Shown here piece by piece: positions 63,076-63,781 of a stretch of 64,000 nt of DNA. Numbering within the stretch: position 1 is the first letter of the stretch; each line of letters begins with the position of its first letter. A model generated the notes under the pieces. The model ran no database searches. It had not been told where the DNA came from and was given only the letters and a program-made list of their open reading frames with translations. The stretch lies in assembly GCA_038883795.1 (NCBI GenBank), contig JAVZLK010000002.1:32001-96000 (forward strand), read 5' to 3'. Made by a program: the position numbers and the translations under genes. This DNA comes from Candidatus Bathyarchaeia archaeon (GTDB lineage Archaea > Thermoproteota > Bathyarchaeia > Bathyarchaeales > Bathycorpusculaceae).

Positions 63076-63781
63076 TTGGAGAAAAGGGAATGGGAAAAAC
63101 TCATTGAAAACCTAATAAAGGAAGGCATCCTCCGCTCGCCAAAAGTCATCAAAGCCATGCGTTCTGTGCCTCGCTCAAAGTTTCTTCCAGAGAACATGCA
63201 ATCTTATAGTGCTGTGGACACGCCGCTTCCAATTGGTTTTGGGCAAACAATTTCGGCGCCACATAGCTCCGCAGCTGCGGGCTAGGCGAAACATGGTTTC
63301 AATAATGAATGAAGCCCTCCAATTGGAAGTCGGCCACAAAGTGTTGGAAATTGGGGCTGGTTCGGGGTGGCATGCCGCCACAATAGCTGAGATAGTTGCC
63401 TCCAGCGATGCGCCAAGAAGCGAATGGGGTCACGTTTACACTGTTGAAATAATTCAGGGATTAGCAGAATTTGCGAGAAAAAATATTATCAATAATGGTT
63501 ATGGTGACCGCGTTACCATAATATGCGCAGACGGTTCATTGGGTTATCCAGAGAGGGCTCCATACGACAGAATCCTTGTAACCGCCGCCGCGCCAGAAGT
63601 TCCAAAACCATTAATAGAACAGCTAAAACCAAATGGAATAATGCTAATCCCTATTGGAAGCGTATCGCTGTTCCAAAGCCTTATAAAAATCACAAAAGGC
63701 GCTGATGGAAAACTTAAAGAAGAAAACCTTGGCGGAGTAGCCTTTGTTCCGTTAACTGGACGTTATGGCCACAAATTTTAG
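63076..63781 (+). CDS. pcm: Protein-L-isoaspartate O-methyltransferase, join(63076..63262,63291..63781), 225 aa after splicing
   Basis: VPR..F...[22 protein letters not shown]...VLEIGAGSG...APYDRI.VTAA...FVPL split over two frames. Confidence 0.92.
63263..63290 (+). other. 28-nt bulge-helix-bulge mRNA intron in pcm
   Basis: CGCC/GGCG 4-bp helix, ACA and AAA 3-nt bulges, intron hairpin TAGC-T-CCGC-AGCT-GCGG-GCTA; excision restores frame and motif. Confidence 0.85.

Follow-up and report, generated by a model that had tools for sequence, protein, structure and literature searches.

A candidate tRNA-type intron within the coding sequence of pcm in a Bathyarchaeia archaeon

INTRODUCTION

Close to the end of the window (the whole 64,000-nucleotide stretch of DNA analyzed here), two open frames at 63076-63285 and 63293-63781 hold the two halves of one gene, pcm, and the question is how a complete L-isoaspartyl methyltransferase could be made from a message whose reading frame is broken. 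The initial annotation proposed that the break represents a bulge-helix-bulge (BHB) intron of the kind that the splicing endonuclease EndA removes from pre-tRNAs, and it named cbf5 as the best-known host of such an intron in mRNA and knew of none in pcm. Watanabe 2002 and Yoshinari 2006 are said to be the works cited on the cbf5 pre-mRNA intron. The accessible text of PMC2738675 (2009) locates the EndA cut between bases 2 and 3 of the bulge, describes most crenarchaeal cbf5 introns as relaxed BHB motifs, and gives confirmed coding-sequence splicing for cbf5 only, citing two works that predict introns in other protein genes. Haloferax volcanii HVO_1309 has a BHB intron in its 5' UTR according to the available part of PMC7714728 (2020), where cbf5 is called the only other case. 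A full-text search, with most subscription papers and supplements outside its scope, found no mRNA intron in pcm or in Bathyarchaeia: the terms mRNA and protein-coding gene appear in the reference list only of PMC12397907, a 2026 preprint on Asgard tRNA mentions neither mRNA nor cbf5, and PMC8211752 and PMC3711429 do not mention introns.

RESULTS

Two frames make up one pcm gene

We found that the two halves match consecutive positions of NF010549 and PF01135 in profile searches (Table 1), each of them scoring above the PF01135 cut-off and, by itself, below the NCBIfam whole-protein cut-offs. An intronless relative matches 1jg1 at E 1e-55 and 2yxe at E 4e-54, and a search of the genome returned the window locus as the sole good pcm match. 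Both halves are conserved: in 107 of 108 intron-bearing relatives the last 55 codons of exon 1 form an open frame (2127 synonymous versus 1373 non-synonymous codon differences), and within the genus exon 2 shows 94-95% identity.

The assembly is 87% complete. Several of its tRNA genes (Ser-GCT, Glu-TTC, and Cys-GCA) occur in three or four copies, which suggests that the bin mixes related organisms despite a contamination figure of 3.4%. Some 7 kb upstream of pcm lies an open frame (55139-56176, plus strand) that may encode an RNA 3'-terminal phosphate cyclase, and an RNase G/E-like frame comes next after it. No Rfam matches were obtained in 60000-64000.

Table 1. Coordinates of pcm, its candidate intron, and the adjoining genes in the window
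Feature	Position	Strand	Basis or remark
glmS, upstream neighbour, not part of the intron	61202..63031	+	TIGR01135 above cut-off
pcm exon 1	63076..63262	+	starts with TTG; 62 codons and the opening base of the His codon; NF010549 3-67, PF01135 4-59
Central helix, 4 bp, 5' strand CGCC, in the exon 1 Ala and Pro codons	63257..63260	+	100% paired in 106 junctions
5' bulge ACA; predicted cut 63262/63263	63261..63263	+	cut rule of PMC2738675 (accessible text)
Candidate BHB intron, 28 nt, phase 1 in the His codon of S-A-P-H-M	63263..63290	+	same-site inserts in relatives; register test 106/106
Intron hairpin: outer stem of 4 bp, bulge of 1 nt, inner stem of 4 bp, loop of 4 nt	63264..63284	+	fold prediction; stem pairing in relatives
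TAG stop in the exon 1 frame; unspliced mRNA would give a 69-aa fragment	63283..63285	+	reading frames
Central helix 3' strand GGCG, in the intron	63285..63288	+	pairs with CGCC 63257-63260
3' bulge AAA; predicted cut 63290/63291	63289..63291	+	structure; register test
pcm exon 2	63291..63781	+	remaining two bases of the His codon, followed by 162 codons starting at Met 63293; NF010549 65-214, PF01135 61-208
Convergent TrpB-like gene, 3' end	63784..63999	-	NF009057 and TIGR01415

The insert folds as a relaxed BHB

Re-deriving the structure placed the helix, the bulges, the hairpin, and the in-frame TAG exactly where the initial annotation had them, and taking out the 28 bases reproduced the 225-aa frame with S-A-P-H-M restored. 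Pair probabilities in the central helix and the intron stem are mostly 0.78-1.0, with a lowest value of 0.59, at 37 and 65 C with 10-100 nt of flank. The folding z-score of 63240-63310 is an unremarkable -0.87, so stability by itself is no evidence for an intron. Genome-wide, we counted 68,203 relaxed BHB-like motifs, 22,313 of which have open frames on both sides; 828 motifs would break a coding frame, and among these the pcm motif ranks first by energy per length.

One part of the proposed structure did not survive, namely an exon-side helix made of G63256:C63292 and a looser AAAC/GTTT pairing. The G63256:C63292 pair has a probability of 0.00-0.02, and its invariance comes from the Ala and His codons, which fix both bases, while the AAAC/GTTT element pairs fully in 55 of 109 intron-bearing versus 16 of 27 intronless genes, being no commoner with the intron and thus without sign of selection. 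Positions beyond G63256:C63292 are unpaired, with the most recurrent exon-exon pair present in at most 43 of 108 junctions, and a stable helix of at least two pairs on the exon side, which the strict hBHBh' definition calls for, was not found. Since an exon-side helix is unsupported, the BHB is of the relaxed type, which would require an EndA of broad specificity.

Relatives carry compensated inserts at the same base

To compare the junction across relatives, we took loci from 61 related genomes (58 with an exon 2 match), the best 80 of 374 GTDB loci, and 48 further regions. With duplicates set aside, along with two loci that had escaped the motif parser and were later found to be intronless, this left 136 distinct junctions. 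An insert stands at the identical base in 109 of these Bathyarchaeia pcm junctions and is absent from 27. Insert lengths span 21-57 nt (48 are 3n+1, 41 are 3n+2, and 20 are 3n), and BHB geometry is kept in 107 of the 109, the two failures having an intact central helix and one mismatch in the outer stem. Among the longer variants, four of 46-57 nt have extended or branched hairpins (L135, L162, L163, and L164), and the shortest, at 21 nt (L167-L170), are all in frame with a TGA. Contigs from public sequencing runs also show length variants within the intron loop.

The central helix is 100% paired in 106 distinct junctions, compared to 25-31% in slid controls, and stem positions 1-4 are 98.8% paired (419 of 424 cells), compared to 9-50% in slid controls, with none of 1000 stem shuffles reaching the observed count (mean 369, maximum 379); in these controls the structure was derived from the window sequence itself, which biases for it, and the related genomes are not independent. 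The pairs themselves change: stem position 1 is T-A, C-G, or G-C, position 2 is A-T, G-C, or G-T, and three or four pair types occur per position. Compensation extends into the exon, where a change of the Ala codon from GCG to GCA (giving CACC) is accompanied by a change from GGCG to GGTG in the intron in 3 of 3 cases and in 6 of 6 members of family f43. Synonymous sites in the helix and bulge are nearly invariant, with Ala written as GCG in 92 and Pro as CCA in 91 of 95 intron-bearing genes and the wobble free in 23 intronless ones, while the synonymous site of the Ser codon adjacent upstream is free with and without an intron.

In the window by itself, four excision registers yield the identical peptide. 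Across relatives, on the other hand, the EndA register restores S-A-P-H-M in all 106 distinct junctions and is the sole one to do so, compared to 99 for +1, 97 for +2, 78 for +3, and 6 each for -1 and -2. The unspliced frame carries Leu or Gln in place of His in 9 of 106, so read-through would be unable to supply the His. This register test is the strongest argument that the sequences offer for cleavage at both bulges.

Inserts that keep the frame carry stops

All 20 in-frame (3n) pcm inserts, 19 of them distinct, contain a stop in the exon 1 frame, which may be TGA, TAG, or TAA and lies at several positions. As a control, we forced 85 distinct non-3n pcm introns into frame at the loop, and a stop was found in 35 after deletion and in about 38 after insertion. 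In cbf5, in-frame inserts have a stop in 15 of 15 cases versus 5 of 10 in the control, so that control rates for the two genes run at about 41-50%. On the tree, the 3n state requires 16 changes, at least seven of them forced, and a rate of 0.44 per origin over seven origins gives a p of about 0.003; an inherited stop at position 6, which some non-3n introns share, makes up part of this signal, so the pattern is suggestive only. Non-3n pcm introns lead to termination within 2-31 codons too. Together, these findings suggest selection against a full-length product from unspliced RNA, which would resemble the rule in eukaryotes that an unspliced message must not read through.

The genome encodes two EndA subunits

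The initial annotation had proposed that the tRNA splicing machinery acts on mRNA in this lineage, and the cleavage part of that machinery is indeed encoded, in crenarchaeal-like form, whereas a search of the assembly, which is 87% complete, did not find the ligase RtcB. Two PF01974 EndA genes lie at separate loci (C4:77482-78060 and C2:171558-172112, minus strand; L111, L112), and two are also present in each of five other genomes tested. One subunit lacks the His of the catalytic loop, as judged against what we take to be the catalytic triad. The other, whose best alignments are to 3p1z_B, 2cv8_A, and 3ajv_B (E 7e-42 to 2e-40), carries Lys at each of the two positions equivalent to K44 and R46 in the Crenarchaea-specific loop, residues that the accessible text of PMC3241643 links to broad EndA specificity. 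The two subunits would form a single complex. RtcB is present in 17 of 21 genomes searched, including three of four in the same genus.

A mobile BHB intron with a homing endonuclease, of the rRNA type, was considered and rejected: the introns are 21-57 nt long, the PF14528 endonuclease (one LAGLIDADG family) was not found in this genome, and the neighbours are glmS and the TrpB-like gene.

cbf5 is the only other clear host among the candidates listed

The expectation that other split genes would hide BHB introns was borne out by cbf5, with no third clear case among the matches listed for this genome. A 19-nt BHB intron splits cbf5 in an Asp codon (G000:C7:69766-69784, minus strand, L113), which is a known cbf5 intron site according to the accessible text of PMC2738675. 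We inspected 31 cbf5 loci in the order, one of them from the present genome and the others the 30 top-scoring among 53 matches, and found inserts of 18-32 nt in 25 of them, 24 of which pair all four central positions. In one genome the cbf5 match (G044:C66:1639-2148) covers profile positions 5-174 only and lies inside an 873-aa open frame, possibly an intein or a fusion. Eight genomes have no pcm intron and a split or interrupted cbf5 (G007, G012, G027, G034, G035, G041, G051, and G059), and two show the reverse, with a pcm intron and an unsplit cbf5 (G013 and G042). By this pattern, the pcm and cbf5 introns are lost independently.

Strict and relaxed BHB scans of the genome gave pcm and cbf5 as the only clear cases among the matches listed, which comprised 120 of the 828 frame-breaking candidates, judged in part by eye and limited to this geometry and to assembled sequence. 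The next-best candidate, on contig C11 (840-893, minus strand), turned out to be the junction of two genes, an in-frame candidate at C18 3745-3768 looks like ordinary coding sequence by eye, and both PF00464 (glyA family) matches in the genome are uninterrupted by profile search. The first 2500 bases of C11 (L212) contain virion- or provirus-like genes by eye, with a strong GC-rich hairpin at the 840-893 gene junction.

The intron is widespread in Bathyarchaeia and beyond

The pcm intron occurs in most sampled families of the order and, elsewhere in the class, in family f20 and part of f34, and no insert was found in 42 further class-level pcm genes. Outside the class, among 301 genomes of the phylum, it occurs in nine genomes of two other Thermoproteota families, f43 (6/6) and f54 (3/3). 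These nine are the pcm genes among 19 matches of a phylum-wide pattern search outside the class; of the other ten matches, five were checked and are not pcm, and a pattern match inside the family (G140) was likewise rejected as not being pcm. When we tested five genomes to characterize the families outside the class, mcrA was not found in any of the five. Among the loci of f43 and f54 with the same-site intron (L281-L289), L281 and L287 have pcm flanked, as judged by eye, by the gene of a flavoprotein-like reductase on one side and, on the other, by a small gene similar to window 59038-59463, a neighbourhood that differs from that in the window.

A quick, unrooted tree built from 136 proteins requires 13 changes for the intronless state, of which well-supported branches force five or more, and several precise intron losses within the order are the simplest reading. 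A wider tree of 104 rows, likewise quick and unrooted and including 13 hand-picked rows of family f1 and later loci, places the intron-bearing genes in three separate groups, with 11 changes of which at least three are forced. The intron is old and probably ancestral to the order, and the three groups may reflect one old gain or transfer. In genus g17 of family f1, the query did not find pcm in any of seven genomes that are 90-100% complete, and this is possibly a lineage that has lost the gene.

DISCUSSION

The 28 bases in pcm are very probably a genuine pre-mRNA intron, of the type handled by tRNA splicing in archaea. Once transcribed, this intron would fold back on the Ala and Pro codons to give a 4-bp helix between two 3-nt bulges, and the two-subunit EndA would cleave after the second base of each bulge. 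A ligase, presumably RtcB, would then join the exons, and joining would rebuild the His codon and with it the 225-aa L-isoaspartyl methyltransferase, whereas translation of unspliced RNA would stop after 69 codons. From the geometry and its conservation, we infer that the pcm message is almost certainly spliced.

Sequence databases reflect the broken frame. Among the best 120 database relatives, 114 consist of the second exon alone, as a piece of 158-168 aa, and the remaining six, which are 225-aa proteins, are closest to intronless loci; clusters that mix 225-aa and 162-aa members differ by 9-13%. Eleven JGI contigs with the junction-spanning motif were considered as spliced transcripts and rejected, since their DNA identity to intron-bearing loci is at most 77% and they are read as intronless genes. 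Four public runs, two of them labelled metatranscriptomic and flagged as probably DNA, contain no 28-nt joint and are uninformative on splicing. The 20 runs listed for this stretch include no RNA run, although transcripts are mapped to Bathyarchaeia genomes in the accessible text of PMC12918454.

The prevalence of 158-168-aa calls, 114 of the best 120, would also be expected if pcm were a split gene, with a short N-terminal piece and a 162-aa piece restarted at Met 63293 under the control of the hairpin. The ATG lies almost exactly at the start of exon 2, and GGCGA or GGTGA, which we take to be a Shine-Dalgarno-like word, stands 3 nt upstream of it. We nevertheless regard restarting as very improbable, because AC directly precedes the ATG in all 95 intron-bearing genes and makes sense solely as the remainder of the His codon, because an N-terminal piece would terminate within 2-31 codons, in one of three frames, and would lack the His in 9 of 106, and because the GG(C/T)G word co-varies with the Ala codon of exon 1. 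It is even harder to credit that ribosomes shift frame or hop over the insert in a programmed way, with the hairpin as stimulator. A hairpin does sit at a conserved frame break, and frameshift recoding in archaea is described in the accessible text of PMC8211752, but inserts of 21-57 nt in three frames leave no single ribosomal shift that suffices, the exit register follows the EndA rule base for base, and models of recoding give no part to a long-range pairing with exon 1.

Two other explanations accept less of the gene or of the splicing. If EndA cut the BHB and the exons were seldom joined, the element would mainly silence or degrade the pcm mRNA, which would fit the failure to find RtcB in this 87%-complete assembly and the proposal, in the accessible text of PMC2738675, that the cbf5 intron is a negative regulator. 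Against this, both exons are open and conserved, exact joining alone restores the motif, and RtcB is encoded in 17 of the 21 genomes searched, so that such silencing appears exceedingly unlikely. A pseudogene or an assembly artefact has next to no probability: the locus comes from a metagenome bin with repeated tRNA genes, which is possibly mixed, but same-site inserts with compensatory changes in 109 distinct junctions from many assemblies, loop length variants in public-run contigs, and the conservation of both exons mean that the comparative data already refute it. Comparison thus settled the doubt that the insert might have arisen in assembly, just as it confirmed that orthologous inserts keep their BHB geometry.

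An intron spliced by EndA in pcm would matter for several reasons. In the accessible texts of PMC7714728 and PMC2738675, cbf5 is the only archaeal gene with confirmed coding-sequence splicing, and another host gene from outside RNA metabolism, present in more than 100 genomes that span two or more classes, would make a class of what is now an oddity. A systematic annotation error would be corrected, in which 114 of the 120 closest database proteins are a truncated second exon. More than 100 natural variants of one predicted EndA mRNA substrate, with the exon-side helix almost absent, together with intronless relatives, allow tests of substrate rules, of precise intron loss, and of the regulation of expression by such introns, and the stops within in-frame introns of two genes offer a sign, amenable to testing, that selection acts on unspliced mRNA in a prokaryote. 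A more speculative proposal, which we consider doubtful and put forward tentatively, is that in Bathyarchaeia and sister Thermoproteota alike, EndA splicing of mRNA forms a long-standing, functional layer of gene expression, in which introns block read-through and act as a checkpoint that ties protein repair by Pcm and RNA modification by Cbf5 to tRNA and rRNA splicing activity.

Among known systems, splicing of XBP1 and HAC1 mRNA in eukaryotes is a protein-catalyzed, spliceosome-free removal of a short frame-breaking intron, for which stress control is known. Excision of the pcm intron would be alike in all three respects, while XBP1 and HAC1, whose splicing by IRE1 and RtcB is named in the available part of PMC13149111, differ from pcm in the nuclease, the recognition motif, and the known stress control. 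Archaeal pre-tRNA BHB introns, which are present in tRNA genes of this genome, share the motif, the cut rule, and a similar size with the pcm intron, but pcm lacks a tRNA body and has essentially no exon-side helix. The HVO_1309 intron, going by the accessible text on it, is like the predicted pcm intron in making an mRNA a substrate of the splicing endonuclease, and is unlike it in belonging to a haloarchaeon and in lying outside the coding sequence, so the frame is unbroken.

The closest counterparts are the cbf5 introns of Desulfurococcales and Sulfolobales. So far as the accessible accounts of them extend, both kinds are short (16-44 nt in cbf5 and 21-57 nt in pcm) and without an ORF, have a relaxed BHB (often so in cbf5) with a cut, predicted in pcm, that separates the second bulge base from the third, lie in phase 1 of a conserved codon, coincide with a hetero-oligomeric EndA, and are patchily distributed with secondary loss. 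On the other hand, pcm encodes a protein-repair methyltransferase whereas cbf5 encodes an RNA-modifying enzyme, the pcm intron belongs to Bathyarchaeia and two other Thermoproteota families, and splicing has been demonstrated for cbf5 and is predicted from sequence for pcm. By sequence criteria, the pcm intron belongs with the cbf5-type, EndA-spliced mRNA introns, a very small known class.
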